DNA of 64,000 nt, from IMG/VR virus record IMGVR_UViG_3300046499_000850; one strand, written 5' to 3'. This document shows, piece by piece, positions 4,479 through 41,746 of this stretch. The notes beneath the pieces are model-generated. The model was not told the origin of the DNA and made no database searches. It worked only from the letters and a program-made list of their open reading frames with translations. Every line of letters begins with the position of its first letter. Within the stretch, counting starts at the first letter, position 1. Origin of the DNA: a virus (Duplodnaviria > Heunggongvirae > Uroviricota > Caudoviricetes). A program made the translations under genes and the position numbers.

Positions 4479-5543
4479 ATGAATCAAGCCATCCAAGAAC
4501 TTCAACAACATCTGCTGAACCCGCAAGAACAAACTTATCTGAATCTGATGCATAATGTCCACACCAATGGCCAGATCAAAACAGATCGCACTGGTACCGG
4601 CACTCGGTCAGATTTCGGCAAGATGATGCGCTTCAACCTGCAAGATGGCATTCCGATGCTGACTACCAAGAAGATCCACCTGAAGTCGATCATCCACGAA
4701 ATCATCTGGTTCCTGGCCGGCAGCACAAACATCCAGTACCTGAAGGACAACGGCGTCACCATCTGGGACGAGTGGGCTGATGAGAACGGTGAACTCGGTC
4801 CGGTCTACGGCAAGCAATGGCGACGCTGGGAAGACACCAAGGTCGTACCGGTCAATCGAATGGACGAGATCGACGAGTTGGTCGCGCAGGGTTATACACA
4901 ACTCGGGCACATCACTAAGCTCGACTTCACCCTGTGCTCTGTTCTGCAAAAGGAATACGACCAGATCACCGATGCAATGAACGCGATCAAGAACAACCCG
5001 GATTCGCGCCGCATCATCGTGAACGCCTGGAATGTCGGCGATGTGCCGGGTATGAAGCTGCCACCATGCCACGCGATGTACCAGTTCTACGTGTCGGACA
5101 TGACGTCACAAGAGCGTGCGAATTACGCCATCAGGAAGGGCGTCGAGATCAGTCAGGACATGGTGTCGCATTATGCGAGCGTCGATGAGTATCTCGACCA
5201 CGTCCACATCCCACGTAAGAAGTTATCCTGCATGTTGTACCAGCGTTCGGCAGATATCTTCTTGGGTGTGCCATTCAACATCGTGTCGTATTCGATGTTG
5301 GTACACATGTTCGCCCAACAGGCCGATATGGCAGTCGGTGACTTCATCTGGGTCGGCGGTGACTGCCACATCTACTCGAACCATACCGAGCAAGTTGATC
5401 TGCAACTGTCCCGTGATGCGCGCGCGATGCCGCAACTCGTGCTCAAACGTAAACCGAAATCGATCTTCGACTACAAGTTCGAAGACTTCGAGATCACGGG
5501 CTACGATCCGCATCCGACCATCAAAGCTCCAGTGGCGGTGTGA
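4479..5543 (+). CDS. thyA: thymidylate synthase ThyA with two internal insertions (354 aa)
   Basis: [28 protein letters not shown], catalytic LPPCH, LGVPFNI, C-terminal [13 protein letters not shown]; about 35 and 40 aa inserts relative to enterobacterial ThyA. Confidence 0.9.
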
Positions 5544-8300: not shown

Positions 8301-9221
8301 ATGCTGAACAAGTTTAACCCGTTCGAGCGCCGCACTGATGGCGACTTGTACCTCAAACCGGCCGGAATTGCCCGCCTGGTCCTGGCACTCATCGCGCTGG
8401 TGATGGCGCTCAGTTACTGGCCGATCCAATCGATCCCCACCGGCTACCTCGGAATCGTTACCACCCTCGGTAAGATCGATGATGTCCGCACCGACGGCGG
8501 CACCTTTATCCTGCCTTGGCAGAAGCTGACCGCGTTCAATGCTCGTGCCGAGAAGGCCGACATCGAGAACGCTGAAGGTAGCACCTCCGACACCCAACCG
8601 GTGAAGGTCAGCCTGACGGTGCGTTACGCAATCAACCGCAACAAGGTCGCCGAAGTGTTCGAACAATACAGCCGCGATGGTGACCTGTCATCCTACGTGC
8701 AAACCGCCACGCAGGAAGTCTTCAAGGCCGTCACCGCCAAATACAGCGCACCGGACTTGATCTCCAAGCGCACCAATGTATCGTCGGACATCTCGTCGGC
8801 GCTGGCTACCAAGCTGTCCATGTACGGGGCCAAAGTCATCAGCATTGACATGCGCACGTTCTCGTTCTCGCCATCCTACATGGCGGCGATCAATGAAAAG
8901 GTCACGCAAGAACAGTTGCGCCTGGGTGCCGAGAATAAGCTGAAGACGGTCGAATCCGAACAGAAGCAGAAGGTTGTGATTGCCGAAGCCGAAGCCGAAG
9001 CTGTCAAGAAGACCGCCGACGGTTCTGCCTACTCGGTGACCAAAGCTGCCGAAGCCGAAGCCCAAGCGATCCGTGTCAAGGCTCAAGCGCTGGCTCAGAA
9101 CAAGGACCTGCTGGAACTGCGCCGGATCGAAGTCGAAGCCATCCGCGCAGAAAAGTGGAATGGTCAACTGCCGACCACGATGTACGGTTCGGCCCCGATT
9201 CCGTTCCTGAACGCCAAGTAA
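8301..9221 (+). CDS. SPFH/band-7 (prohibitin/HflK-like) membrane protein
   Basis: N-terminal TM, SPFH-like core, Ala/Glu-rich coiled-coil tail (AEAEAVKK...AEAEAQAIR). Confidence 0.75.
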   Translation: MLNKFNPFERRTDGDLYLKPAGIARLVLALIALVMALSYWPIQSIPTGYLGIVTTLGKIDDVRTDGGTFILPWQKLTAFNARAEKADIENAEGSTSDTQPVKVSLTVRYAINRNKVAEVFEQYSRDGDLSSYVQTATQEVFKAVTAKYSAPDLISKRTNVSSDISSALATKLSMYGAKVISIDMRTFSFSPSYMAAINEKVTQEQLRLGAENKLKTVESEQKQKVVIAEAEAEAVKKTADGSAYSVTKAAEAEAQAIRVKAQALAQNKDLLELRRIEVEAIRAEKWNGQLPTTMYGSAPIPFLNAK

Positions 9222-9229
9222 GCGTCATA

Positions 9230-9278
9230 CTCCCGCTACCCAAGTGGTAGCGGGAGCTATGCTGTTCTATTGTTTTTT
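9230..9278 (+). terminator. intrinsic terminator, conserved family (ctcccgctacc-caag-ggtagcgggag + T-run)
   Basis: 11-bp perfect stem then ctatgctgttctattgtttttt. Confidence 0.75.
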
Positions 9279-9414
9279 GCGGCTATATCACACTACAGAG
9301 TGTAAATGTTGCACAGCAGGAAATTTTTATTGGGCAACAGGATGTTTTGAGTAGTAAGGGAATCGCGACGCCCTGCAACAGTAAAAGATGCGCTTATTTT
9401 TCGGGAGTCGAAAA

Positions 9415-10515
9415 ATGCAAAACGTAGCACCTGCTGTACTTGGTAAGAATCCCCGCTTGGGTGTGATGATCGGTCGTTTCTCGTTCATCCACCGTCAACA
9501 CGAGCGTACCCTGCAAATCATGGCTGCCGAGAATGATTACATCCTCGTCATCATCGGTTCAGCGAATCGCTGCGAGTCCAAGAAAAACCCGCACCAGTTC
9601 GCGATCCGGGCCATGATCATGGCCGAAGTGCTTCGACGGATCAAACCGGATGGGCAGTGGCGGATCATGTCTGTCAACGATACCCTTTACAACGAGGACC
9701 GTTGGAAGATGCGGGTGTACGCGAATGGCGAGCACTACGCGGACCGGCATGGCATCCATCCTGACCGCATCACGTTGTACGGTACGGACAAGGATGAATC
9801 GACCTACTACATGAATTCGTTCCCGCAATGGAACGTCAAGAAAGTGGAGAAGGTCGAAGACATCGATGCCACCAGGTTGCGGGAAGTGTGGTTCCAGAAC
9901 TGCCAGACGGCGCCTGCCGGCCTGGGTCTCCAAGACCATCTGGTCCCGGAGATGTACCGCTATCTGCGTGATGGTCACAAGTTCAACAAACCGTTGCAGG
10001 ATGACTGGCATTATCTCACGGTCAAGGAACCGGAAAAGTTCAAGGACTATCCGTATCCCGAAGCTCTGAACGTGATGTGCGGTGACGCCATCGTGGAATG
10101 CGCGAACCACATCCTGACCGTGACCCGGTCGGGTGAACTCGGTTACGGGCAAATCGCTCTGCCGGGCGGTCACAAAAACAAAAACGAAACGGCGTTCAAC
10201 GCGGCGATTCGTGAACTGTTCGAAGAGACCAACTTGCGCACACCAGAGCAGACCATCCGTAATTGCGTGCAAAACACGTTCCTGTTCGACCATCCTGGTC
10301 GGACGCTGAGCTCGGTTCCCAAATCGACGCTCGGCGTGCACATCAAGATCGAGCTGTGGAAAGGGGAATTCCCGCGCGCCCGTGGCGGTGACGATGCCAA
10401 GCATCCGACGCTGCCGAATGGCGGTATCCGCTGGATTCCCAAGTATGACATCATCAGCGGCAAGGTCCAGATGTGGGATGACCACAACGACATCGTGGAT
10501 TATTTCACGGCGTAA
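9415..10515 (+). CDS. nadM: bifunctional NMN adenylyltransferase / Nudix ADP-ribose pyrophosphatase (NadM-like)
   Basis: GRFSFIHRQH nucleotidyltransferase motif near N-terminus; Nudix box GGHKNKNETAFNAAIRELFEETNL in C-terminal half. Confidence 0.8.
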   Translation: MQNVAPAVLGKNPRLGVMIGRFSFIHRQHERTLQIMAAENDYILVIIGSANRCESKKNPHQFAIRAMIMAEVLRRIKPDGQWRIMSVNDTLYNEDRWKMRVYANGEHYADRHGIHPDRITLYGTDKDESTYYMNSFPQWNVKKVEKVEDIDATRLREVWFQNCQTAPAGLGLQDHLVPEMYRYLRDGHKFNKPLQDDWHYLTVKEPEKFKDYPYPEALNVMCGDAIVECANHILTVTRSGELGYGQIALPGGHKNKNETAFNAAIRELFEETNLRTPEQTIRNCVQNTFLFDHPGRTLSSVPKSTLGVHIKIELWKGEFPRARGGDDAKHPTLPNGGIRWIPKYDIISGKVQMWDDHNDIVDYFTA

Positions 10516-10583
10516 AGAATAGTGGCAGAAGCCATGAGGGTGGCCGGTCCCTTACCGGTGCAGTAAATAATTGGGAGCCAATT

Positions 10584-12134
10584 ATGTTAGAACTGATTAA
10601 ACCCTTCAACATCATCCTTTGGGCAGACACCTACAAATTCTCGCACTGGGAAGAAATTCCGTTTGCGGTGAAGCAGTTGGTGTCAGCTGTGGTTCCGCGC
10701 AAAGCCATCACTTTCGAGGATGGTACGTTCATGACGGACGACCTGGTGGCCGCTGGACAAACGTTCATCGCCCACGTGTTCGCCACGGCGCGTCTCGAAC
10801 AATGGATGATCGACGAAGCGGAAGTCGAAATTACCGAGCAGGGCTACACCTTCAATCGCGCTGGTTGGGAATACATCCTCCGTACCTACGGTGGCCGGAT
10901 TCCGCTGACCATGTTCGGGGTTGAAGAAGGTCGTGTGGTTAAACCCCAAACACCGATTCTGCTGGTGACCAACGAAGACGACGACCACACCGCATGGTTG
11001 GTTCCGTACTTCGAGCCGGTGATCCAGTCGGTGTCCTGGTCGATGACTTACACGGCCACCATCTGCCGTTACATGTTCACCGTGATGGCGTACTACGTAC
11101 TGCTGTCCGGCGGTGACATCAAACTGCTGGAATATCTGATCCACAACTTCGGTGACCGTGGTGCGGATAGTCCGGATGAAACCCCCGTCCTCAAAGGCAT
11201 TGCTCACGCGATGCTGTTCCTGGGCAGTGACTGCGGGCGTGCCAACGGCTACATCAAGAAGCTGTACAACACGTCCAAACCCTTCACCTCGTCGGTGGAG
11301 GCCACGGAACACACGACGGTCTGCCTGAACTCGGACGCGGCAACGCGTGACGACTTCGGCGGCATGCAGATGGTGATGCGGCGCCTCAAAGCTGTGGTCG
11401 AACGCAGCAAGCGCGGCATCGGTATCCCCATCATCTCGACTGTGCCGGATACCTACGATGACGAACGGTTCATCACGGTGTACGTCGCTGGCTTCAAGGT
11501 GGAAATCGAAAACTCGGGTGGCCGCTTGGTCATCCGTCCGGATTCGGGTATCCCCGCGAAGAAGTTGCCACAAGTGCTCAACTGGCTGAAGGACATCTTC
11601 GGCACGGTTGCGAACGAACTCGGTTACCAGAACCTGCCATGGTGCATCGGCGCGTTGTATGGTGACGGCATGAACGTTCACACTTTCGAACCTGTCGTGC
11701 GGGCAGCGGTGGTGGATCACAAATTCACTACCAACAACTTCCTGCTCGGCATGGGTGCCGGCATCACCAACGAAGGTTCCCGTGACAAGGCAAGCTTCAG
11801 CATGAAAACCATTGCCATGCGTGGCGAAACGTGGAAACGTGTGCTGAAGGAGCCCAAGTCGGACCTGGGTAAGAAGTCGCTGTCGGGTCTGATCCGCAAT
11901 CGTGAAAACGAAAACGGTGAACTCGAAACCTTCGATGCACTGGTATCGAACAGCCTCTACGAGATGTTCGTGCCGGGACCTGGTCATCGTCGTTGGCTCG
12001 ATAAGGGTTACCGCGATTACCGTCAGTCGTTCGATGACGTCCGTGCTTGGGCACAAAAGGGCGCTATCGATAAAGCAACCGCTCGCCTCGCTGCCGAAAA
12101 AGTGGCGCACGATGCAGAAGCTGTAGTAGCGTAA
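10584..12134 (+). CDS. nadV: nicotinamide phosphoribosyltransferase (NAMPT/NadV)
   Basis: N-terminus NIILWADTYKFSHW typical of NAMPT; about 500 aa. Confidence 0.8.
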   Translation: MLELIKPFNIILWADTYKFSHWEEIPFAVKQLVSAVVPRKAITFEDGTFMTDDLVAAGQTFIAHVFATARLEQWMIDEAEVEITEQGYTFNRAGWEYILRTYGGRIPLTMFGVEEGRVVKPQTPILLVTNEDDDHTAWLVPYFEPVIQSVSWSMTYTATICRYMFTVMAYYVLLSGGDIKLLEYLIHNFGDRGADSPDETPVLKGIAHAMLFLGSDCGRANGYIKKLYNTSKPFTSSVEATEHTTVCLNSDAATRDDFGGMQMVMRRLKAVVERSKRGIGIPIISTVPDTYDDERFITVYVAGFKVEIENSGGRLVIRPDSGIPAKKLPQVLNWLKDIFGTVANELGYQNLPWCIGALYGDGMNVHTFEPVVRAAVVDHKFTTNNFLLGMGAGITNEGSRDKASFSMKTIAMRGETWKRVLKEPKSDLGKKSLSGLIRNRENENGELETFDALVSNSLYEMFVPGPGHRRWLDKGYRDYRQSFDDVRAWAQKGAIDKATARLAAEKVAHDAEAVVA

Positions 12135-12181
12135 TACATGAAGCCCTGGCCCCACAAGGGTCAGGGTCTTTATGCCACCAT

Positions 12182-12193
12182 TATAATCAACAA
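12182..12193 (+). promoter_or_regulatory. TATAATCAACAA promoter-like motif upstream of lipoprotein gene
   Basis: ttataatcaacaaggaaagcttc-ATG. Confidence 0.5.
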
Positions 12194-12203
12194 GGAAAGC
12201 TTC

Positions 12204-12926
12204 ATGAAAAAGTTCATTACCATCGTGTCCCTGATTGCGCTGACCGCATGCAGCGACCACAACCAACCCTATCCGCAACAATACCAGCAACCGCCGGTCG
12301 TCGTCCAACAGACCCCTGCCCAAGCCCCGGTCGTCGTGCAGCAATCCGACAACAGCGGCTCCGCCATGGTGGCTGGTGCCGCCCTCGGCGCCGTCGCTGC
12401 AATGGCCCTGTCCGACCGTGACCGCGGCTACGCCCAACCCGGCTATGCCCCCCAGCAAACCACCGCCGTCCAGCAAAACGTGACACACGTGACCAACGTC
12501 ACCAATATCGACCGCAGCAAAACCGTCAACAACAACGGCTCGACGAAAGACGTGCCGCCGGCAGCTACCGCCGCTGTTCCGACTCCGACCCCGGTCCCGC
12601 TGTCGCCAGCCCCGGCTGCTGTGAGCCTAGCCAAAGACGTGCCGACTGCGAAACCGAACTACGCTGCTGCGGGTACCGCCTCGCCCGTGCCGAGCATGAC
12701 TCCGGCTGCGCTGACGGCTGCCAAACCCCTGACCCTGCCGGCTGCCACGGGTTCGACCCAGAACTACAAGCCGGCGAACTATGCACAGGTCGCATACAAG
12801 CAGCCCGCTGCCCTGCCCGCGCCACCGAAGCCGTTGGCGCTGCCTGCGCCGAAACCGGCCGCACCGAGCTACAAAGCGCCGGCCGCAATCAGCTACAGTT
12901 ACAAAGCGCCCTCGGGTAAGAAATAA
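12204..12926 (+). CDS. Pro/Ala/Gln-rich lipoprotein (lipobox LTAC)
   Basis: MKKFITIVSLIALTAC signal/lipobox; low-complexity proline-rich body. Confidence 0.55.
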   Translation: MKKFITIVSLIALTACSDHNQPYPQQYQQPPVVVQQTPAQAPVVVQQSDNSGSAMVAGAALGAVAAMALSDRDRGYAQPGYAPQQTTAVQQNVTHVTNVTNIDRSKTVNNNGSTKDVPPAATAAVPTPTPVPLSPAPAAVSLAKDVPTAKPNYAAAGTASPVPSMTPAALTAAKPLTLPAATGSTQNYKPANYAQVAYKQPAALPAPPKPLALPAPKPAAPSYKAPAAISYSYKAPSGKK

Positions 12927-15442: not shown

Positions 15443-16336
15443 ATGAACGTGGACTCTGCTAAAGAACGTGGTGTGTACTTTATCGCTGACGTAGACTCTG
15501 GCAAAGTCTACGTTGGTAGTACTGAAAATAAACGAAGGCGTCTCCGTGATCATGAGCGAATGTTGGAAAATAATAAACATCATAATCCACCATTACAAAA
15601 CGCTTACAACAAAGGGCACGCTTTCGAAACAACATTTCTTCCTTTAGAATCGCATGTCGACATTCGGAAAGTAGAAGGTGTTTTTCTTGACCATTTAAAG
15701 GACGAGAAAGTACTCCTAAACGTTTCAATGGACCCGATCGCACCAATGGCTGGGAGAAAACAAACTCCTGAGCAAATTGAAGCAGCGCGACAGCGGATGA
15801 TGGGAAATACTTATACTCTCGGTCATAAACAAACTGATGAGCATAAACAGAACGCCGTAGCGGGTCGGGCAGGTTATCGTCATTCGGAAGAAACGATAGC
15901 CAAGATTAGCGAGTCCAATAAGGGGAAACAAACCGACAAGGTTATTTCTCCTGAAAATTTGGAGAAGCTAAGGCAAGCCAATCTGGGGCATACGCGAAGT
16001 TATGGTCGTACTCATTCGGATGAAACGAAAGAAAAACTTCGAATATTGAGTACAGGAAGAACCCATTCGGTTTCGGAAGAAGCTAGGGAAGTTATGCGTC
16101 AAGCAAAACTCGGGAAACCTCTTTCTGAAGAACATCGTCAAAAACTTAGCGTTGCAGGAATGGGTCGAGTAGATTCACCGGAAACACGTGCTAAGAAATC
16201 GCTTGCTAACGCAGATCGTGCAAAACCTGTTGTAATTGAAGGCGTCGAATACGGTAGCCGGAACGCAGCAGCAAAGGCGTTAGGTGTTACCCTTACTACG
16301 ATTACCAACCGGATTAATTCGGGACTTTACAAGTGA
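15443..16336 (+). CDS. free-standing GIY-YIG homing endonuclease with NUMOD3 repeats and C-terminal HTH
   Basis: GVYFIADVDSGKVYVGSTENKRRRLRDH (GIY...YVG...R), repeated SEETIAKIS/SDETKEKL/SEEHRQKLS NUMOD3-like units, lower GC than flanks. Confidence 0.85.
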   Translation: MNVDSAKERGVYFIADVDSGKVYVGSTENKRRRLRDHERMLENNKHHNPPLQNAYNKGHAFETTFLPLESHVDIRKVEGVFLDHLKDEKVLLNVSMDPIAPMAGRKQTPEQIEAARQRMMGNTYTLGHKQTDEHKQNAVAGRAGYRHSEETIAKISESNKGKQTDKVISPENLEKLRQANLGHTRSYGRTHSDETKEKLRILSTGRTHSVSEEAREVMRQAKLGKPLSEEHRQKLSVAGMGRVDSPETRAKKSLANADRAKPVVIEGVEYGSRNAAAKALGVTLTTITNRINSGLYK

Positions 16337-16343
16337 GATTAGA

Positions 16344-17249
16344 ATGGCGACTTACTTTATTTGGACAGTCCAGATATACCGTGCCGGTAATTTGAAGGAA
16401 CAGGGAATTCACTTACTTAACACTACGGCAAAAGACGGAGTCAGGGCGTTCGCGCCCTCCTTCAATGACGTGATGCTGTACAAGGAGGGTAAACTCTCCC
16501 AAACCCAGTACACGGACATTTACCTGCACCGCATGAAAGATTCGCGGGAGAAGAACCCCGCAGATTGGAAACGACTGCAAGAGCATGAGAAAGTGGCAGT
16601 GGCATGTTACTGTAGTCCTGGTAAGTTCTGTCACCGTCATTTGTTTATCCACGACATGAAGGCGGACCTAGAAGCCCGTGGTCATGAAGTGAAACTCATG
16701 GGAGAACTCAATGGACCTGATTACAGCCCGGTGGCTCCGAAAGCGGTAGTTTCGATTCCACGGGACGTGGTCATCGTTCCGTTTTATAGTAAACATGATT
16801 TGTTGTCGAATCATCACCCTAGTGGTTTTACCATCAAGGGTGTGACATTCGCGCACGTTGAGCAATTCATGATGTACTGTAAGGCGATGCTGTTTAACGA
16901 TAAACTGCAAGCAGGGCGGATTCTGGCTGAATCCAATCCCCAAGGGTGTAAAATTCTCGGGCGCGGGGTTCGTCCTTATGACGAGAAGTTGTGGGCTGCC
17001 AAACGGCGTCGGTATGTGTATTTCGCGTGTTTACAGAAAGCGCGCGAACACAAAGAGGTGCGTGAATATTTGCTGTCGACTGGCAATGCGATTTTAGTCG
17101 AAGCCAGCGCCAAGGATGTGATCTGGGGGGTGGGGATTGCCAAAGACGATCCACGCATCTACGACATGGCCCAATGGCGCGGGATGAATTTGTTGGGCGA
17201 GATCTGGATGGAAGTGCGTCGGGTCTTACAAGAAGATGTTCTATTCTAA
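16344..17249 (+). CDS. DUF4326-like N-domain fused to NADAR (YbiA-like) domain protein
   Basis: CYCSPGKFCHRHL motif N-terminal; NADAR-like FYSKHDLLSNHHP...EQFMMYCKAMLF...LLSTGNAILVEASAKDVIWGVG. Confidence 0.7.
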   Translation: MATYFIWTVQIYRAGNLKEQGIHLLNTTAKDGVRAFAPSFNDVMLYKEGKLSQTQYTDIYLHRMKDSREKNPADWKRLQEHEKVAVACYCSPGKFCHRHLFIHDMKADLEARGHEVKLMGELNGPDYSPVAPKAVVSIPRDVVIVPFYSKHDLLSNHHPSGFTIKGVTFAHVEQFMMYCKAMLFNDKLQAGRILAESNPQGCKILGRGVRPYDEKLWAAKRRRYVYFACLQKAREHKEVREYLLSTGNAILVEASAKDVIWGVGIAKDDPRIYDMAQWRGMNLLGEIWMEVRRVLQEDVLF

Positions 17250-20142: not shown

Positions 20143-20159
20143 TAATGAAGGATATCACC

Positions 20160-21587
20160 ATGGAACAGAAAACCAACAAAGTCAACTTCGCCTTCGACCG
20201 CCACCCGGACGGTAAGATCGTGCCGATGCGCGAAATGAAGTCGAATATCGTGCGCGAAATCCCGGCGGGTACCTACCGCCTAGAATTCGACAGGGACATC
20301 GGCATGTACTTGATGCCGGTGAACGACTTCAAGCTGCCGGAGCGGATCTACGGCAAGGTCAATAACTACGCCCAGCGCTTCATGCGTGCCTACGAGCTCG
20401 GCAACAAGAACTTGGGCGCGCTGCTGATCGGCGACCCGGGCTCGGGTAAAACCCTGACCCTCAAGCAAGTCGCGGTGCTGGCGGTACAGATGGGATACCC
20501 GATGATTCTCATCGATAAGCCTTGGCCGGGCGATATGCTCAGCGCATTTCTGAACACCATCACCCAACCCTGCGTGGTCGGCGTTGATGAGTTCGACAAG
20601 AAGTATGGTGAGAAAGTCAGCCAACAACCCGGTCAATCGCCGCAAGACCAGCCAGCGGACATCCAGAACTCGATCCTGGAAATGCTGGACGGCGCCTCGT
20701 CGGGTGACAAGAAACTGTTCGTGCTGACTGCCAACGACGACAACCGGATCTCGGAATACATGAAAGACCGTCCGAGCCGCATCCGCTACACCATTTCCTT
20801 CAAACGGATCGAACGCGAAGCTGCGCTCGATTACGTGAACGCCAATCTGAAGAACGCCACGGAAGAAAACATCCGGGCGTTCTTGGCGCTGGTGCTAGCC
20901 GATGCCGGTCCGTCCAAGGGCATGAATTTCGACTCGATGGTGGAACTGGTCAAAGAGATGAACGACTTCGACTGCACTCTGGATGAAGCGCTCGAACTCA
21001 TGATCCGTAACGGCAAAAAGTCGTACACCTCGTTCGAGATCACGGTTTTCCATAATGGCGAGAAAGTGCAAAAAGTCGGCGGTCATGGTCGTCACCAGAG
21101 CGCTTACATCAACGGCAACTCCGATTACAGCATCGATACCATGCTGGTGCTGCCGCCAGCAGAGGGCGAAGAAGTCTCGCGTCGTGTCAACGTCAATCTG
21201 GACAAAGAGCATTTCGTCGGGTTCGGCGAAGACCTCGATATGTACGAGTTCCGTTACGGTGACTTCACCTTCATGGCCAAACTGGTCGGTTACAACGAAG
21301 CCATGAAAGCCAACCATGATGCTGAAAAGGAGTACACGGAACTGCCGGACGTGAAAGCGTACAAAGAAAAGTCGATCCAGAGAACCAAGGAAACCGGTGA
21401 GCTGCCCAAGAGTATGCAGGGGCGCAGCTACTTGCCTGACCACATGCAGCACCTGCCGGAAATGTACAACATGGACAGCCTGATGAAGGCGAATTTCGCG
21501 GGCCGCCGTGAAGCGAAGCCCCAGAAGCTGAAAAACAGTAATTTCTCGGGTGCACACGTGCAGCGCAACGGCACCTACGACAGTTAA
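20160..21587 (+). CDS. AAA+ family ATPase (paralogue 1)
   Basis: Walker A GDPGSGKT, Walker B VVGVDEFDK; architecture shared with 21660..22994. Confidence 0.75.
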   Translation: MEQKTNKVNFAFDRHPDGKIVPMREMKSNIVREIPAGTYRLEFDRDIGMYLMPVNDFKLPERIYGKVNNYAQRFMRAYELGNKNLGALLIGDPGSGKTLTLKQVAVLAVQMGYPMILIDKPWPGDMLSAFLNTITQPCVVGVDEFDKKYGEKVSQQPGQSPQDQPADIQNSILEMLDGASSGDKKLFVLTANDDNRISEYMKDRPSRIRYTISFKRIEREAALDYVNANLKNATEENIRAFLALVLADAGPSKGMNFDSMVELVKEMNDFDCTLDEALELMIRNGKKSYTSFEITVFHNGEKVQKVGGHGRHQSAYINGNSDYSIDTMLVLPPAEGEEVSRRVNVNLDKEHFVGFGEDLDMYEFRYGDFTFMAKLVGYNEAMKANHDAEKEYTELPDVKAYKEKSIQRTKETGELPKSMQGRSYLPDHMQHLPEMYNMDSLMKANFAGRREAKPQKLKNSNFSGAHVQRNGTYDS

Positions 21588-21659: not shown

Positions 21660-22994
21660 ATGGCAAACCAGAAAGACGAAATCAAGTTCATTTTCCACAT
21701 CGAGCAAGATGGCAACATCGTCCCGCATCCGATGGTGCGCGGCACCGCAGTGCCGGAAATCCCGCCGGGCGTGTTTTCGCTGGTGTACGAAGAACCCACG
21801 CCGATGACTTCGGCCAAGATTTACCTGCGTCCGGAAAACTCGTTCAAGACCCCGCAGCGCGTCTACGGCGGCGACAAGATCAATGACCTGGTGACCCGCT
21901 TCATCAAGTCCTACGAGCTCGACGACAAAAATCTCGGCATCGTTCTGATGGGTGAACGGGGATCGGGCAAGACCATGCTGCTCAAGACCCTGTCGGCCAA
22001 AGTCATCGAGATGGGTTTCCCGGTCATCCTGGTCGACGAGAAGATCCCGGCTGGCGTGCTGAACTGGTTCTTGTCCACCATCACCCAACAGTGTCTGGTG
22101 AACTTCGATGAGTTCGAGAAAGTCTACGATGATGTCGACGACCAGACCGGCATCCTGCGCCTGCTCGACGGTACCAACACCGGCGCCAAAAAGATGTACT
22201 GTTTCACGATCAACGACAAAGACAACGTGTCGAAGTATATGTTCGGCCGCCCCAGCCGGGTGCGTTACGTGTTGCCGTTCAAGCGCCTCGAAGTCAACGT
22301 CATCGCCGAGTACGTGCAGGCCAACCTCAGTAATTGCACGGAAGACCATCTGCGTGCTTTCCTGCACACGGGTCTGTGTGACGGCCGCGAATCGAACGGC
22401 ATGAACTTCGACTCGATGGTCGAGTACGTGAAAGAGATGAATCGCTTCGGCGACAACCTCAACAACGTGCTGAACATCATGGGGGAAACCAACACCAAGA
22501 GCTGGTCGCTCTTCGAAATCACCGGTTTCCACAACGGTGAAAAAGTGTGTCGCACCACCGCTCACGGCACGCACGAAGGTCCGTACATCGGCAAGGACGA
22601 GATGGAGCTTATCTTTAATATCCAGGTCTCGACCACCGAAGCCGATGCTGTCTCCACGAGCACCAACTGGCAGAAAGAACGGGTGGTGCTGACGCAAGAA
22701 CATTTCGTCGGCTTCGGTGACGCATACGACACGCTGTTGTTCGCCAAAGACGGGGTATCGTACAACCTGCGTTATTTGGACCATAACCTGGCCAGCAAGA
22801 TCACCAACGAGCTGGAGGCCGATAAATCGGGAAAGTCGGTCGGGGTGCGTCGATCCCCTACCTCAACTTCGACTTCGAATGGGATTTCTCTACCATCGCC
22901 CACGTTGTCTTCCGCTAACTTGGGCTCCGACGTGCAGGGAGAACCATATCTCGTTCTGCGCCCGGACCAAACGCGCAGCGGCACCAACGGTTAA
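21660..22994 (+). CDS. AAA+ family ATPase (paralogue 2)
   Basis: Walker A GERGSGKT, Walker B LVNFDEFEK; collinear similarity to 20160..21587. Confidence 0.75.
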   Translation: MANQKDEIKFIFHIEQDGNIVPHPMVRGTAVPEIPPGVFSLVYEEPTPMTSAKIYLRPENSFKTPQRVYGGDKINDLVTRFIKSYELDDKNLGIVLMGERGSGKTMLLKTLSAKVIEMGFPVILVDEKIPAGVLNWFLSTITQQCLVNFDEFEKVYDDVDDQTGILRLLDGTNTGAKKMYCFTINDKDNVSKYMFGRPSRVRYVLPFKRLEVNVIAEYVQANLSNCTEDHLRAFLHTGLCDGRESNGMNFDSMVEYVKEMNRFGDNLNNVLNIMGETNTKSWSLFEITGFHNGEKVCRTTAHGTHEGPYIGKDEMELIFNIQVSTTEADAVSTSTNWQKERVVLTQEHFVGFGDAYDTLLFAKDGVSYNLRYLDHNLASKITNELEADKSGKSVGVRRSPTSTSTSNGISLPSPTLSSANLGSDVQGEPYLVLRPDQTRSGTNG

Positions 22995-35187: not shown

Positions 35188-35265
35188 AGGGGTGTCGCCA
35201 AGCTGGTCTAAGGCTCCGGATTTTGATTCCGGCATTCGGAGGTTCGAATCCTCCCACCTCTGCCA
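35188..35265 (+). tRNA. tRNA-Gln (UUG)
   Basis: aggggtg..cacctct acceptor, anticodon arm ccgga-ttttgat-tccgg, T-arm ggagg-ttcgaat-cctcc, ends gcca; near-identical to enterobacterial tRNA-Gln. Confidence 0.85.
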
Positions 35266-35283
35266 AGTTTTTTTTGTTTCACC

Positions 35284-35446
35284 GGGTGTGTAGCTTAGTT
35301 GGTAGAGCGCGATCATTTAAGAATTGGGGGTTCGAGTCCCCCTACCTCCCTCTCGGAGGTATGGCGGAATTGGTAGACGCGCCGTCCTGAAAGACGGTTT
35401 CATACCGCGATCGAGGTCTTGGGTTCGATTCCTGACACATCCACCA
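35284..35446 (+). tRNA. split tRNA-like unit X2: 5' half 35284-35314 plus 3' half 35409-35446; the 94-nt intervening sequence carries a permuted type-II tRNA-like unit whose acceptor ends form a hairpin (tacctcc-ctctc-ggaggta)
   Basis: acceptor gggtgtg/cacatcc 7/7 (1 GU), anticodon stem cgatc/gatcg 5/5, var aggtc, T-arm ttggg-ttcgatt-cctga, ends acca. Confidence 0.5.
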
Positions 35447-35545
35447 TCAATGCCTAAGTCAACTTAACCATTTACTAATCAGCCGATAAGTTTAGGTTTC
35501 CAAGAAAGTTGATAAGGGCACCCTTTTGCGTTAGAAGAAGCGTCT

Positions 35546-35619
35546 GTCTCCGATAGCTCAGCTGGACAGAGCGGCCCCGGTGCAGGGGTATGGACCCTGG
35601 TTCGATGCCAGGTCGGGGA
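35546..35619 (+). tRNA. tRNA-like gene with non-canonical anticodon loop (ggtgcag)
   Basis: acceptor tctccga/tcgggga, D-arm gctcagctggacagagc, T-arm cctgg-ttcgatg-ccagg. Confidence 0.45.
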
Positions 35620-35686
35620 GCCCTATTCGAAGAATAAAGACGGCATACAACCCTTCCCAACCCCGGCGGGATCAGGAAGGGAAGAG

Positions 35687-36046
35687 TTAACGTGCGCCGC
35701 CGTTGTAGGGTACCGCCAAGCCTTGCTTCACCAATTCAGCATTGACGCTGGTGGTTGAGTTAGGCAGATATACCTCAGCCAAATAGCGACCGTACTTTTC
35801 TTTTTCGTCAGCGACAGTTTGGATCACCACGGGAGACTCCGGCGGTAACTTCTGTTGCAACCACGCTTTCGAAGCTTTGCCTGCCGGTGTGCTGGTCTCG
35901 GGCGCATTGATCCCGTTAAAGCGGCACGTCATGTTGATGTTGACATCGCAACCGAGGTCAACCCTGAACTCGGCGGTATCCCCATCGATCACCCGAATAA
36001 CGGTGGCGTTACGAATGTAGACATCTTTCTTTTTTGCTGCGACCAT
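35687..36046 (-). CDS. staphylococcal-nuclease (SNase/thermonuclease)-like nuclease
   Basis: VIDGDTAEF...NGINAPET...KYGRYLAEV pattern typical of SNase fold; only minus-strand gene in window. Confidence 0.75.
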   Translation of the reverse strand: MVAAKKKDVYIRNATVIRVIDGDTAEFRVDLGCDVNINMTCRFNGINAPETSTPAGKASKAWLQQKLPPESPVVIQTVADEKEKYGRYLAEVYLPNSTTSVNAELVKQGLAVPYNGGAR

Positions 36047-36113
36047 CGTAGAACTCCCAAAAATACATCATGTGATGCTCATAAAAATGGGCACCATGTT
36101 CTGAAAGAAAGCC

Positions 36114-36302
36114 ATGCTGTCGAAATTAAATGCAGAGCAGAAGAAGCTGGTAACTCACATCTTCAAAGGTATCAACCTTCTGCGCAAACGCGGAGAGTCC
36201 GAACTGAGTCGTGGCGAACGTATTCGGAAAGAATACCAAGCGTTGTCGGGTCGTGACAAACAGACCATCACCCTGCGTTTGAAGAAAGCACTTGGGCTAT
36301 GA
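36114..36302 (+). CDS. hypothetical small basic protein (62 aa)
   Basis: ORF; weak RBS. Confidence 0.35.
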   Translation: MLSKLNAEQKKLVTHIFKGINLLRKRGESELSRGERIRKEYQALSGRDKQTITLRLKKALGL

Positions 36303-36619
36303 TCAGTGCCAAAGAAGCGCGTCTTTTGTCCGAAGACGCGAAAGTCGATATCACTTCGATTCTGGAAAAGCTAGATCGCCGCATCGCTACTTCAGCGGCG
36401 CATGGTCACGATTCGCTGGAGTGTAGTGAAGAAGGTACTGAGGTGGCGACGTACGACGCACATCCCCCCGAACGGCAAAGCTGTCCGGCCACCGTTAAGC
36501 GCCTGATCACCGAACTCGAACGGCTCGGTTACAAGTGGCGTTGGGCATCGGTTCAAGGACCGTACAGAGTCGAACCTTTCACGCCAGGTACAATCTATCG
36601 CCTCGTCATTAACTGGTGA
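36299..36619 (+). CDS. hypothetical protein (106 aa)
   Basis: ATGA overlap. Confidence 0.45.
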   Translation: MISAKEARLLSEDAKVDITSILEKLDRRIATSAAHGHDSLECSEEGTEVATYDAHPPERQSCPATVKRLITELERLGYKWRWASVQGPYRVEPFTPGTIYRLVINW

Positions 36620-36626
36620 GCACAAG

Positions 36627-36704
36627 GCCGGTATAGCTCCTAATTGGTAGAGCAGCGGATTTGTAATCCGATGGTTGGGAGTTCGAATCTCTCTACCGGC
36701 ACCA
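36627..36704 (+). tRNA. tRNA-Thr (UGU)
   Basis: acceptor gccggta/taccggc perfect, anticodon loop tttgtaa, T-arm gggag-ttcgaat-ctctc, encoded CCA. Confidence 0.8.
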
Positions 36705-36721
36705 TTTATAATAAGGCAAAC

Positions 36722-36925
36722 ATGTTCGCTTTTATCTATTTCTTTTGCGCAATCATCTCGTTGGTGGAATTCATCACCGGCTGGGACAAAGCCCGTAACA
36801 AACTCAAGAGTATTGCTGGATGTGTGATCGCGCTCATTCCACTGCTCAACCTCATCATGGCCATCGCTGTTATCACACACCGGTGGCCGAAGATCAAAGC
36901 CTGGACCGTCAAGTATTTCGGCTAA
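36722..36925 (+). CDS. small membrane protein (67 aa)
   Basis: first ATG after tRNA within ORF 36644..36925. Confidence 0.35.
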   Translation: MFAFIYFFCAIISLVEFITGWDKARNKLKSIAGCVIALIPLLNLIMAIAVITHRWPKIKAWTVKYFG

Positions 36926-37971
36926 CGTTCAATGGGTTTAGTCTGGATCGTCCGCGGGTCGCATTGTCCATACAGGCGGTATCGCACCGCAGAAACAAGT
37001 GTCTTGACTTCTAAGGTCACCTTACTAAACCCACCCTTTAAGAACCCGTGTTTACACTCGAAGTAAGAACTGCATTAAGACTTGCCTTCGTCTGGCTTTA
37101 CATTTGCAGCTATCCCTCTCGCGGAGGTTTGAGGGACGTACCTAACATGGGTTCTTTCTTATTTCAAATAACCGTACTGATGAGCCGTGGAAGTCGGCCG
37201 CTAGCCTAGCTAGCCAAGGTTGCAAACCCTTCGAAACGGCGCAAGCTGTATGCGGATGGCCCCTCACAATGGAGGCTGTCCCCATGTCACCCCACTACCA
37301 ACAGGGACGGGACTTGATGTGGGTACCCGGCAGTAGCTGATGACAAGGCTGCTTAAATTGTGCGGCTATTTCAAACTGGGCGTACCCCTGTCAAGGGTTC
37401 GACCCCCGCTGGTAGCAAGTTGTGCGATAGTCTGTGCTGGACTTGTAACCGCAAGGAACTTGTTCTTCGTGACGCGATCGAAAGATCATTGTGCAGCCGT
37501 TGGTCTGTCTTTGGGGTTGTGGCCACAATCCGTGAAGAATTCCATCGTGGAATGGCGAGAGGAAGGGACATCGCGCCCGGCCGTGGATGGCGGACCTTCC
37601 TCTCACTTCCTTCTAGTTAACTTAGCCGGACTCTAATTCAGAAAGCATCTACCGGAAACAAAGAGCCGGTTAAGGATGGGAAGAATGAACGCCTAGAAGG
37701 AAGCACATGACTAAGGCAGGTGCGGGTCGACACGCATGGCTGTATGAAAGTGTGTGGGTATCTAGGACGGGGCATGGTTCGAATCCATGGCGTCCGGCTA
37801 AGTTAACTGTTTAGAAAGTACTTACAGGGTGGGGCAAAGGTACGGAAGGATCAGATCCGTGCTACGTAACCACAATACTGGATTGATCCTCTGGTATGTT
37901 GGTGGACCGTCACGACGGTGCCGCCACCCTGTAAGTACTTTTATGCCGTCAATTTTTTAGAGAGTGCAGAA
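36926..37971 (+). ncRNA. about 1-kb structured non-coding region with tRNA-like T-arm (37765-37789), AA*-ending mini-ORF and 18-bp perfect inverted repeat (37815-37832 / 37924-37941); candidate tmRNA-like or other large ncRNA
   Basis: ggacgggg-catgg-ttcgaat-ccatg; gca gta gct gat gac aag gct gct taa at 37330-37356; no credible CDS. Confidence 0.35.
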
Positions 37972-38865
37972 ATGTGGAAATGGTTGATGCGTGTACTGAG
38001 CGGCAAAGAACCACTGGCAAACACCAAGAGTCTCCGAATCGAACACTTGGTAGATCGTCAAACCCAGACTGTCGAAGAAGGTGGTGTGGGTGTTCAAGTA
38101 GGCGGTGATTTGGTACAACCAAAACCATCGTCGGGCGGTAAAGGGGCTCCGTATATGACCCCCATCTCTTCACTTTCTACCCAACGTTCGCGCAGTCTGG
38201 AAGAACTCGGTATTCGGGCATCCCGTGGTCCGATCGATTCCGAGGCTACACGCCGCTCTATCGAGCGGTTCAAACAAACCCAAGCTTTAAGCGATAGCGC
38301 CCGCCAAGCAGCGCTCGAACATATCAAACGGAGCTCGACGTTCAATCCTGCGCCACCGAGTAATAATGTGTTCAACGCGACACCCCACGTGACCCTGGTT
38401 CCCGGGAGCCGTGCTGCGCAAATTCAAGCGGCCGCAAACGCGGCGGCTCGCGATCAAGCAGACTGGGCTAGGATTCGGGCAGAGCAAGATCGCCAAGACG
38501 CCCTGCGTCGAGCTTTGACTAAAGCGGCTGAGATGAATGCAGCAACCAGTCGCGGCGTTGCTGCTGTTCGTCAGGATCAAGAAGATTATCGCCGTAGGCA
38601 AGAAGAAGAGTTGACACGTCGTCGCCGTGACGACGATGACGCTACTACCCGTAGCCTAATGTTCAGCAACACAAACAACACTGTCGACAACAGTCCGGCA
38701 CCGGCGTACCACCCGCCCGTTCATCATGATCCAGCGCCGTGCCCTGCGCCGTATTACCATCAAGACAACAGTTCGAACCGCCACCCCAGTTGCCCGACCC
38801 CGTCGTATGACAACGGTGGCAGCAACTGGGGTGGCGCCGATCCGAGTCCCTCGAACAACGATTAA
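37972..38865 (+). CDS. hypothetical disordered/low-complexity protein (Ala/Arg/Asp/Pro-rich)
   Basis: RBS agagagtgcagaa-ATG; upstream part of ORF lies in inverted repeat. Confidence 0.45.
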   Translation: MWKWLMRVLSGKEPLANTKSLRIEHLVDRQTQTVEEGGVGVQVGGDLVQPKPSSGGKGAPYMTPISSLSTQRSRSLEELGIRASRGPIDSEATRRSIERFKQTQALSDSARQAALEHIKRSSTFNPAPPSNNVFNATPHVTLVPGSRAAQIQAAANAAARDQADWARIRAEQDRQDALRRALTKAAEMNAATSRGVAAVRQDQEDYRRRQEEELTRRRRDDDDATTRSLMFSNTNNTVDNSPAPAYHPPVHHDPAPCPAPYYHQDNSSNRHPSCPTPSYDNGGSNWGGADPSPSNND

Positions 38866-38876
38866 GCAATAAGAAT

Positions 38877-39110
38877 ATGAACATCGATAATTCTCCCACT
38901 TACTTTGTTGCTGGGATTGCGAACCTGCGCGTGGGGGACCTTTCCTTTGTCCAACATCATCGGGCGACACTGATTGGTCGTGTTAATAAAGTGTGGTCGA
39001 TGGGTGGTGAAATCGCTATCGCCTTCGGTGACAACACCGAACCCACCCACCGCTGGCGTAATAACAAATGGGAAAAGGTAACGTACTTGTCCCTAAGGGG
39101 TCGTTCGTAA
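38877..39110 (+). CDS. hypothetical protein (77 aa)
   Basis: ORF. Confidence 0.4.
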   Translation: MNIDNSPTYFVAGIANLRVGDLSFVQHHRATLIGRVNKVWSMGGEIAIAFGDNTEPTHRWRNNKWEKVTYLSLRGRS

Positions 39111-39145
39111 AGAATTACCTTATTGCCGAATAGTAAGAGCGACAT

Positions 39146-39234
39146 GCCCGGATGGTGAAACTGGTAGACACCCGAGGCTTAAACCCTCGTGCGAATAAAG
39201 TAGCGTGCGGGTTCGATTCCCGCTCCGGGCACCA
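39146..39234 (+). tRNA. tRNA-Leu (UAA), type II
   Basis: acceptor gcccgga/tccgggc, anticodon arm cgagg-cttaaac-cctcg, long variable arm, T-arm gcggg-ttcgatt-cccgc, CCA. Confidence 0.8.
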
Positions 39235-39235
39235 A

Positions 39236-39320
39236 GGGAGTATGGCGGAATTGGTAGACGCCCCGGCCTCAAAATCCGGTGTCGAAAGACGTGCGAGTTC
39301 GAGTCTCGCTACTCCCACCA
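39236..39320 (+). tRNA. tRNA-Leu (CAA), type II
   Basis: acceptor gggagta/tactccc perfect, D-arm gcggaattggtagacgc, loop ctcaaaa, long variable arm, T-arm gcgag-ttcgagt-ctcgc, CCA. Confidence 0.7.
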
Positions 39321-41182: not shown

Positions 41183-41746
41183 ATGAAGAAAATCAAGTCG
41201 TTGTTTCAACGTAATTACGATGGCGACCGCCAAGTCCGTAACGAAGTCGTTCCTGGTTCGGAATGGGTGACCCTTGGAGAGGGTTACGCTACCCGGAAAT
41301 GGGATGGCATGGCAGTTAAGTTAGAGAACGGGCAGTTCTTTAAACGGTACGATGCCAAAACGGGGCGTACACCTCCGCCCGACTTTCAGCCTGCTCAACC
41401 CTTGCCTGATCCGGAAACGGGCCATTGGCCGGGTTGGGTGCCATTGCAAGGTAAAGAACTCAAGCGTGTCATGGAAGCCTACCGCCAATCTGGTGTGTCG
41501 GAAGAAGGCACGTTCGAATTCTGTGGTCCAACGATTGGTACGCGTCACGGCGCCAATCCGGAAAACCTCACCGAACACATTTTGGTACCGCACGGGCAGG
41601 AAATACTGTCCAACTGTCCGCGCGATTTCGATGGATTGAAAACGTTCTTGGGGGAACGAAATATCGAAGGGGTTGTGTGGTGGCATCCCGATGGCCGTCG
41701 GGTCAAAATCAAGGCTGCTGACTTCGGTATTCAGCGGCGGCACTAG
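41183..41746 (+). CDS. small covalent-nucleotidyltransferase (ATP-dependent RNA/DNA ligase-like) protein
   Basis: TRKWDGMAV (KxDG motif I), EGVVWWHPDG (motif IV-like), RVKIK (motif V-like); only 187 aa. Confidence 0.45.
   Translation: MKKIKSLFQRNYDGDRQVRNEVVPGSEWVTLGEGYATRKWDGMAVKLENGQFFKRYDAKTGRTPPPDFQPAQPLPDPETGHWPGWVPLQGKELKRVMEAYRQSGVSEEGTFEFCGPTIGTRHGANPENLTEHILVPHGQEILSNCPRDFDGLKTFLGERNIEGVVWWHPDGRRVKIKAADFGIQRRH

Follow-up and report, generated by a model that had tools for sequence, protein, structure and literature searches.

A probable NARP2-type nadM-nadV gene pair with covarying hairpins at both start codons in an uncultivated jumbo phage

The 64,000-nucleotide stretch of viral DNA that is analysed here (IMG/VR record IMGVR_UViG_3300046499_000850; hereafter the window) contains two adjacent genes, nadM and nadV, which very probably represent a NARP2-type module of a jumbo phage for the salvage and reconstitution of NAD+ (probability roughly 0.85, with the activities of the enzymes predicted from their sequences). 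An earlier note on this DNA had claimed that NadM-like and NadV/NAMPT genes are adjacent at 9415-12134, and both open reading frames (ORFs) are present there, together with the motifs that it quoted, namely GRFSFIHRQH, the Nudix box and the NAMPT N-terminus (Table 1). The ORFs of nadM (9388/9415..10515) and nadV (10584..12134), both on the + strand, are the longest frames in this interval. The start of nadM at 9415 is preferred to that at 9388; GGGAG is located 7 nt upstream of the former and no Shine-Dalgarno (SD) sequence precedes the latter. The 366-residue product of nadM is also called independently on contigs that are identical to the window.

The 516-residue product of nadV has the layout of a nicotinamide phosphoribosyltransferase (Nampt), with a NAMPT_N domain at residues 9-109 and a catalytic barrel at residues 186-444. 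Residues 257-281, after the catalytic His, form a clade-specific insertion of 25 residues, and the C-terminal tail (residues 495-516) is rich in Ala. The earlier note had set profile searches (PF04095 and NUDIX) beforehand as the decisive test of its family assignments, and these searches place both proteins in the named families. For NadV, Pfam detects NAMPT_N (PF18127; 5.6e-9, 36.6 bits with a cut-off of 25) and NAPRTase (PF04095; 1.1e-14, 55.2 bits with a cut-off of 20.8). NadV also matches NCBIfam PRK09198 (1.4e-84) and phrog_448 (3e-90), as well as mouse/human NAMPT over residues 7-450 (4e-41) and Xanthomonas Nampt (1e-36). Aligned to mouse NAMPT, to one Nampt of the KVP40 type, to three Namats (homologous enzymes, described below) and to metagenomic relatives, NadV is identical to NAMPT at 12 of its 13 active-site positions. 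D15, Y17, F189, R192, D216, H243, R318, D320, G360, D361, G391 and R400 of NadV match D16, Y18, F193, R196, D219, H247, R311, D313, G353, D354, G383 and R392 of mouse NAMPT, respectively, where H243 corresponds to the His that is phosphorylated. The only changed position is G384, which is A392 in NadV, at a site where homologs have G, S or A. Several homologs are named 'nicotinate phosphoribosyltransferase' in databases, and an enzyme that uses nicotinate instead of nicotinamide, like NaPRT, is therefore an alternative reading of NadV. This reading is very improbable, because NadV contains the NAMPT_N domain, its best solved matches are all NAMPT, and the Asp residue equivalent to D219, which governs the amide specificity of NAMPT, is kept as D216.

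NadM is composed of an NMN (nicotinamide mononucleotide) adenylyltransferase (NMNAT) domain at residues ~14-170 and a Nudix domain of the ADP-ribose pyrophosphatase type at residues ~225-366. It matches NCBIfam PRK05379 (2e-50), phrog_395 (7e-52), Pfam NUDIX (1.5e-8, 35.2 bits with a cut-off of 21.1) and Francisella NadM (PDB 2qjt; 1.8e-26). The match to Synechocystis NadM-Nudix (PDB 2qjo; 7e-39) is collinear over residues 14-365 and includes the entire NMNAT domain. Both His residues of HxxH, [SA]TxxR, the full Nudix box, FDxPxR and GGDDA are retained. The second NMNAT motif, (I)S[SA]TxxR, is represented by DIDATRLR, which aligns with FSSTAIR and FNATEFR. The Nudix box GX5EX7REUXEEXGU is matched as G-HKNKN-E-TAFNAAI-RE-L-F-EE-T-N-L, in which the last G is replaced by Asn, as is also the case in Francisella NadM. 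Compared with relatives, nadM has a ratio of nonsynonymous to synonymous substitution rates (dN/dS) of 0.15-0.18 and nadV one of 0.11-0.14, indicating that both genes are maintained by purifying selection. The order nadM-then-nadV is kept in 13 phage lineages, at identities from 90% down to 25%.

In NARP2, Nampt uses phosphoribosyl pyrophosphate (PRPP) and pairs with Nmnat, and in NARP1, Namat uses ADP-ribose (ADPR)-pyrophosphate and pairs with PRPS-like Adps (bioRxiv 10.1101/2024.02.11.579819). Namats carry a signature, the SCH consensus GS-X-Phi-X-Phi-X-Phi-TRD with an aromatic residue at X, which is termed the "selectivity clamp" (PMC12774641). The SCH sequences of three Adps-linked Namats are GSFSYQFNTRD, GSYTYQYMTRD and GSYTYAYNTRD. 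The corresponding segment of the window NadV is GAGITNEGSRD, in which no aromatic residue is present at motif positions 3, 5 and 7. Adps/PRPS-like sequence is not found in the 64-kb window by tblastn with three Adps proteins (none with E < 1), and the PRPS family is absent among the scanned ORFs of the window. Because the SCH aromatics are missing, Adps is not found in 64 kb and the adjacent gene encodes Nmnat, the module is assigned to the NARP2 type. The gene content of the window, a Nampt-clade gene and an Nmnat gene 68 nt apart without Adps, is that by which NARP2 is recognised. In cases of this kind, Nampt and Namat can be told apart by sequence through three features: the SCH motif, the type of partner gene, and whether Adps is present. 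The earlier note was silent on the homologous Namat/NARP1 alternative, the features of which are not found when it is tested.

Several observations concerning the pathway and the two enzymes weigh against this assignment. The identity of the window NadV to other enzymes is 26-29%, whether these are KVP40-type, mammalian or Namat (28.7% to Staphylococcus phage G1 Namat, 28.6% to mouse NAMPT and 26.2% to KVP40-type Nampt). In a neighbour-joining tree of 16 sequences, three well-supported groups are formed, and the window NadV groups with those of phages XaC1 and GAP32 (100% bootstrap) in a clade that belongs to neither the Nampt nor the Namat group. Phylogeny and percent identity are therefore dropped as deciders between Nampt and Namat, and the NARP2 call is based on the partner gene together with the SCH motif, because the tree alone does not decide. 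Namat and Nampt are homologous and KVP40 Nampt is weakly able to use ADPR-pyrophosphate, so that NadV might be of the Namat type, forming NAD+ directly from nicotinamide and ADPR-pyrophosphate as in NARP1. This alternative is highly unlikely, because, in addition to the missing SCH aromatics and the lack of an Adps/PRPS-like gene beside nadV or within 64 kb, the adjacent gene is Nmnat in every relative examined, and the three Adps-linked Namats form a clade of their own (100% bootstrap). The Adps check covers the 64 kb of the window, out of 272 kb or more for the whole genome, and Adps or Prs may be encoded elsewhere in it. Likewise to be set against the NARP2 assignment, a sigma-70 promoter/terminator scan finds no promoter on the + strand, and does not flag the hairpins that flank the gene pair. 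The combined role of the module in metabolism and counter-defence is predicted by homology.

The remaining observations of this kind concern the divergence of the two proteins, above all that of NadM. Both score below the equivalog cut-offs of NCBIfam (284.5 versus 405 bits for NadV with PRK09198 and 172 versus 397 bits for NadM with PRK05379); an equivalog cut-off is a naming threshold and not a family boundary, and the two proteins are therefore divergent members of their families. The NMNAT signature (H/T)xGH is HRQH in NadM, with both His residues kept and Gly changed to Gln, and the canonical GRFQPxHxGH is GRFSFIHRQH (GRFQ changed to GRFS). Pfam CTP_transf_like stays below its threshold in the window NadM and its closest relatives, and is detected in more distant homologs. 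These features could mean that the NMNAT half has lost or changed its activity, in which case NadM would work mainly through its Nudix domain, as an ADP-ribose/NAD(H) pyrophosphatase, leaving the last step from phage-made NMN to NAD+ to host NadD/NadR. However, both His residues, the GS...NP segment, W, YY..FPQW and [SA]TxxR are retained, the variant motif is stable down to 46% identity at a dN/dS of ~0.15-0.18, and the alignment with 2qjo spans the whole NMNAT domain. Loss or change of the NMNAT activity is considered improbable. The changes of Gly to Gln/Glu and of Gln to Ser co-occur in every NadM relative of 46% identity or more. Hx[QE]H is present in eight relatives (P0002-P0009) and in the 322-kb contig L005, HNAH is present in L006, and distant homologs have the canonical GRFQ...HxGH. 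HRQH/GRFS is a derived trait of this subclade and looks like one lineage-specific event, so that the joint change does not count as statistical evidence of coupling. The HRQH variant of the NMNAT motif is new.

Both nadM and nadV have a hairpin at the translation initiation site (Table 1). In the form that is shared by these hairpins, a 5-7 bp A/U-rich stem closes the loop GGAG[U/C], the first G of GGGAG is located in the closing pair, and AUG follows 0-3 nt downstream. The loop together with the closing pair holds the SD sequence GGGAG of nadM (9403-9407), and the 3' arm extends to A of AUG. The SD sequence GGGAG of nadV is located at 10573-10577, and the 3' arm overlaps AU of AUG. The stems vary by gene and lineage (UUUUCG/CGAAAA, AAUUG/CAAUU, CUAAG/CUUAG, AUUAG/CUAAU, ACAUA/UAUGU and AAUUCG/CGAAUU). 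Over 21 nadM/nadV leaders, both sides change in all seven of the seven pairs, and pairing is observed in 94.5% of the cells; shuffling lowers this to 57.6%, and sliding the partner columns to 33-55%. The stability of the hairpins is modest (-4.9 to -6.5 kcal/mol). A covariance model, run with filters off, matches only the nadM and nadV sites in the window. In 392 kb of other loci, it matches nadM/nadV sites, except for one weak match (L050, E 0.013) without such a gene beside it; besides the window, the hairpins are noted for L001-L006, L019-L026 and L036-L058. It detects no start-codon hairpin in KVP40-like or NARP1 loci. Each of eight GAP32-like contigs (354-378 kb) has two copies of the exact 15-mer CTAAGGGAGTCTTAG, immediately before nadM and nadV, and a 345.8-kb contig has one, before nadV. 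The mobile promoter/stem-loop cassettes of the PeSL type in T4-like phages (PMC2839356) are rejected as an explanation, because these cassettes are many-copy units of promoter and terminator, whereas the nadM/nadV hairpins are present twice per genome and contain the SD sequence.

Covarying hairpins with the SD sequence in the loop at nadM and nadV are new. They point to a dedicated post-transcriptional control, by which the translation of the two genes of a costly pathway may be coordinated. The NARP pathway drains PRPP and is toxic when freely expressed (bioRxiv 10.1101/2024.02.11.579819). It is tentatively proposed that the NARP2 genes of the window clade, XaC1 and GAP32/CBB/Rak2-like phages form a small post-transcriptional regulon, in which the RNAs might be bound by a trans-acting factor, by NadM/NadV, or by a metabolite (NAD+, NMN, ADP-ribose or PRPP), such that this PRPP-draining, toxic pathway would be held back until NAD+ falls. 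Within the window clade, the candidate pseudoknot of the nadM leader and a second conserved hairpin of nadV, that in the spacer (both described below), would belong to the same regulon. This possibility is regarded as less probable than its opposite.

Further upstream, the 5' leader of nadM in the window clade contains a candidate H-type pseudoknot, the segments of which are defined by hand. Stem A is formed by AGGG (9357-9360) with CCCU (9371-9374), and stem B by GCGA (9365-9368) with GCGC (9390-9393). In nine related contigs, stem A is AGGG/CCCU, UGGG/CCCA, AAGG/CCUU or GAGG/CCUU, and stem B is GCGC/GCGC, GUGCAC/GUGCAC, ACACUC/GAGUGU or GGUGC/GCACC. All of these stems are fully paired, save for one mismatch in stem B, which is in the window copy itself. 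Rfam 15, including the NAD+ riboswitch classes, gives no match to a leader when 9150-12300 is searched by cmscan with E up to 10; three weak, chance-like matches are obtained, all outside the leaders.

The 68-nt spacer between nadM and nadV (10516-10583) contains a conserved hairpin (Table 1). The spacer differs from that of the related locus L003 at only 5 of 68 positions, while the synonymous divergence (dS) of the flanking genes is 0.63-0.70, and ~45 nt of it hardly vary among phages with NadM identities of only 46-53%. A 15-mer and a 17-mer of the spacer are unique in the window, and the pattern matches once in each of three related contigs of 226-322 kb, so that a generic promoter or repeat is rejected. 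A coding function is also rejected, because the read-through in the NadV frame lacks a start codon, a mini-ORF of 10 codons is out of frame or absent in relatives, and the substitutions do not follow a codon pattern but agree with the hairpin. The minimum free energy (MFE) z-score of the spacer hairpin is not significant when taken alone. A metagenome scan for the spacer element yields only one further contig, and the depth of covariation is low.

The gene pair is flanked by terminator-like hairpins. The upstream hairpin, downstream of the SPFH/Band_7 gene, has a folding energy of -26.7 kcal/mol (z = -3.84), and the downstream hairpin has one of -25.9 kcal/mol (z = -4.19); in neither case are any of 200 shuffled sequences equally stable as RNA. 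The upstream hairpin is missed by a simple terminator scan, because its T-run is not adjacent to the stem. The downstream hairpin is retained in relatives with other stem sequences, and U(C)UUUAUG always comes next. These hairpins are the probable 5' and 3' boundaries, respectively, of the nadM-nadV transcription unit. The spacer contains no terminator-like structure. The simplest reading is that nadM and nadV form one bicistronic unit, an operon structure that is predicted from these signals.

Table 1. Positions of the features of the nadM-nadV locus in the window
Feature	Position	Strand	Basis or remark
Terminator-like hairpin downstream of the SPFH/Band_7 gene	9230..9256	+	11-bp stem, then T-rich tract (~9257-9279)
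Candidate H-type pseudoknot, nadM 5' leader	9357..9393	+	compensatory changes across four lineages
nadM translation-initiation hairpin UUUUUCG-GGAGU-CGAAAAA	9397..9415	+	MFE -6.5 kcal/mol; covariance model 38.4 bits
nadM, bifunctional NMN adenylyltransferase/Nudix (predicted), 366 residues	9415..10515	+	profile and structure-database matches
NadM motif GRFSFIHRQH	9472-9501	+	residues 20-29; HRQH at 9490-9501
NadM motif DATRLR	9865-9882	+	second NMNAT motif
NadM Nudix box GGHKNKNETAFNAAIRELFEETNL	10165-10236	+	Nudix domain
NadM motif FDHPGRT	10285-10305	+	FDxPxR
NadM motif GGDDA	10384-10398	+	GGDDA
Conserved spacer hairpin CCGGU-CCCUU-ACCGG	10544..10558	+	one variable stem pair, G-C, A-U or U-A among phages
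nadV translation-initiation hairpin AUAAUUG-GGAGC-CAAUUAU	10567..10585	+	MFE -5.9 kcal/mol; covariance model 37.9 bits
nadV, nicotinamide phosphoribosyltransferase (Nampt; predicted), 516 residues	10584..12134	+	profile and structure-database matches
NadV N-terminal NAMPT motif ADTYK	10623-10637	+	read in the sequence
NadV catalytic His243 in ATEHTT	11301-11318	+	alignment
Terminator-like GC-rich hairpin, then UCUUUAU	12137..12174	+	directly after the nadV stop

The module is expected to work as follows. Defence effectors of the TIR, SIR2 and SEFIR types break NAD+ into ADP-ribose and nicotinamide. NadV would convert nicotinamide and PRPP to NMN, and the N-terminal domain of NadM would convert NMN and ATP to NAD+. 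The C-terminal Nudix domain of NadM would convert ADP-ribose to AMP and ribose-5-phosphate, from which host Prs may form PRPP again. The module would thereby keep NAD+ available in infection and replace that cleaved by the effectors, and the SD-containing hairpin at each start codon would probably allow the translation of the two genes to be controlled jointly. The enzymes of KVP40, NadV and NatV, make NAD+ from nicotinamide, and NARP2 is present in ~1.1% of phages (bioRxiv 10.1101/2024.02.11.579819). The Nampt/Nmnat pair of KVP40 eliminated defence by type I Thoeris and by DSR2, and led to higher NAD+ during infection; Thoeris I and DSR2 are the defences against which NARP2 was tested, and the effect on DSR1, SIR2-HerA and SEFIR was shown for NARP1 (bioRxiv 10.1101/2024.02.11.579819). 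The background given in the earlier note, that phages rebuild NAD+ against NAD+-depleting defences, thus holds for NARP2 with type I Thoeris and DSR2, and the wider list of defences comes from NARP1. By analogy, the module may have a counter-defence role in the window phage.

The module may instead be purely auxiliary metabolic, supplying NAD+ for the nucleotide and DNA metabolism of the phage without any anti-defence role. In accordance with this possibility, the window contains a block of nucleotide metabolism genes around the module (thymidylate kinase, ThyA, ribonucleotide reductase small subunit, dihydrofolate reductase and a dCTP-deaminase-like gene, besides an SPFH protein), and NARP2 raises NAD+ also in cells without a defence system. 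However, the KVP40 enzyme pair abolished Thoeris and DSR2, an ADP-ribose-processing NADAR gene 4 kb downstream fits a conflict setting, and a metabolic role does not exclude salvage and counter-defence by NARP2. A purely metabolic module is therefore possible but is considered the less likely case.

Comparison with known systems shows which features the NARP2-type pair of the window shares with them. The KVP40 NARP2 has the same two enzyme families and the same architecture (Nampt, and NMNAT fused to Nudix), and all catalytic residues of Nampt are shared. NadM homologs are detected in 459 of 50,697 GenBank phage records (~0.9%), including those of KVP40-like phages, which are 33% identical over 96% of the length. 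In contrast, KVP40-type NadV is only ~26% identical and belongs to a separate clade, and the window enzyme has the 25-residue insertion and the C-terminal tail. The KVP40-like phage VH1_2019 has no NadM homolog within 5 kb of nadV, unlike the window, and a start-codon hairpin is found at its locus neither by a regex survey nor by the covariance model. The GAP32/CBB/Rak2-like phages and XaC1 share with the window the NadV clade (100% bootstrap), the gene order, the insertion after the catalytic His and the SD-in-loop hairpin at both starts. Their identities to the window proteins are, however, 34-39% for NadV and 25-27% for NadM, and their hairpin stem is CUAAG/CUUAG, unlike that of the window. 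Their NadM has the canonical HxGH but a degenerate Nudix box and FDxPxR. They contain an ORF of ~165 residues between nadM and nadV, where the window has the 68-nt spacer, and no homolog of this small ORF is found in the window or in L006. Bacterial NadM-Nudix enzymes (Synechocystis slr0787, 2qjo; Francisella, 2qjt) share full-length homology, the layout of the Nudix box, FDxPxR and GGDDA; the window protein differs from them by HRQH in place of HLGH/HKGH, an insertion of 7 residues after GGDDA and its phage setting. NARP1 (Adps and Namat) shares with the window the homology of Namat to NadV, the catalytic core and the goal of rebuilding NAD+, but differs in Adps, the SCH aromatic motif and the partner, which in the window is Nmnat, with PRPP as the expected donor. 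NARP3 (PnuC and NadR-like) likewise rebuilds NAD+ in phages and ends in an NMNAT step, but its starting point is nicotinamide riboside that has been imported; neither PnuC nor a ribosylnicotinamide kinase domain is seen among the scanned ORFs of the window.

The source of the window is an uncultivated jumbo phage. Nearly all genes of the window are on one strand, and the DNA is phage DNA. Logan assemblies contain contigs identical to the window, and a 272-kb contig of the Joint Genome Institute (JGI; 3300046492, Ga0495585_0000009) represents a strain with 95-98% identity. The closest relatives are metagenomic, and the relatives in IMG/VR are 226-322 kb in size. Megablast of 9000-12500 against the 50,697 GenBank phage records gives no match. 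At the protein level, the closest GenBank phage NadV is that of Xanthomonas phage XaC1 (37.7%), followed by those of GAP32/CBB/Rak2-like jumbo phages (~34%).

Several other features are observed around the module. The SPFH/Band_7 gene is located upstream of nadM in the window (8301-9221) and downstream of nadV in the 322-kb relative (L005, 9558-10460), indicating that it has moved around the module. The gene that follows nadV, 12204-12926 (+), most likely starts at 12204 and not at 12138. Its product of 240 residues is Pro/Ala-rich with a lipoprotein-like signal (MKKFITIVSLIALTAC), and has no Pfam match; its sole match is weak (8.6e-5) and is to a PHROG that is uncharacterised. At 16344-17249 (+), 4.2 kb downstream of nadV, a NADAR domain (3e-41) is fused to DUF488-N3a in a protein of 301 residues, which represents a second NAD/ADP-ribose-related gene near the module; it is preceded by a GIY-YIG/NUMOD3 homing endonuclease gene at 15443-16336. 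Two adjacent, paralogous AAA/STAND-like ATPases (20145-21587 and 21660-22994) both match phrog_2376, with weak ORC/Cdc6-like and nSTAND matches. thyA (4557-5491) is 86% identical to that of the JGI strain, as compared to 95-98% for its flanks, which suggests that this segment may have been replaced by recombination. A cluster of six tRNA genes (35188-39320), including those for Gln, Thr and two Leu, contains two with abnormal two-base anticodons, as called by ARAGORN. Genes for tRNA/RNA repair are located near this cluster, namely an RNA-ligase-1-like fragment (41183-41746), RtcB (52925-54157) and a CCA-adding enzyme (55849-57051).

The occurrence of NadV-NadM pairs in large phages, which the earlier note gave as background, is documented for jumbo phages: in a 2022 survey, NadV is present in 33% of them, NadM is always present with NadV, and NADAR genes are present in the same neighbourhoods. 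The gene pair is thus already known in kind, and that of the window is a divergent example of NARP2. Its value is confirmatory, in that it extends NARP2 to an uncultivated and very divergent lineage of jumbo phages. A regulatory function of the start-codon hairpins, if confirmed, would account for the ability of phages to bear the cost of a pathway that drains PRPP and is toxic when freely expressed, and would provide a compact, testable case of phage translational control that is tied to an anti-defence function.

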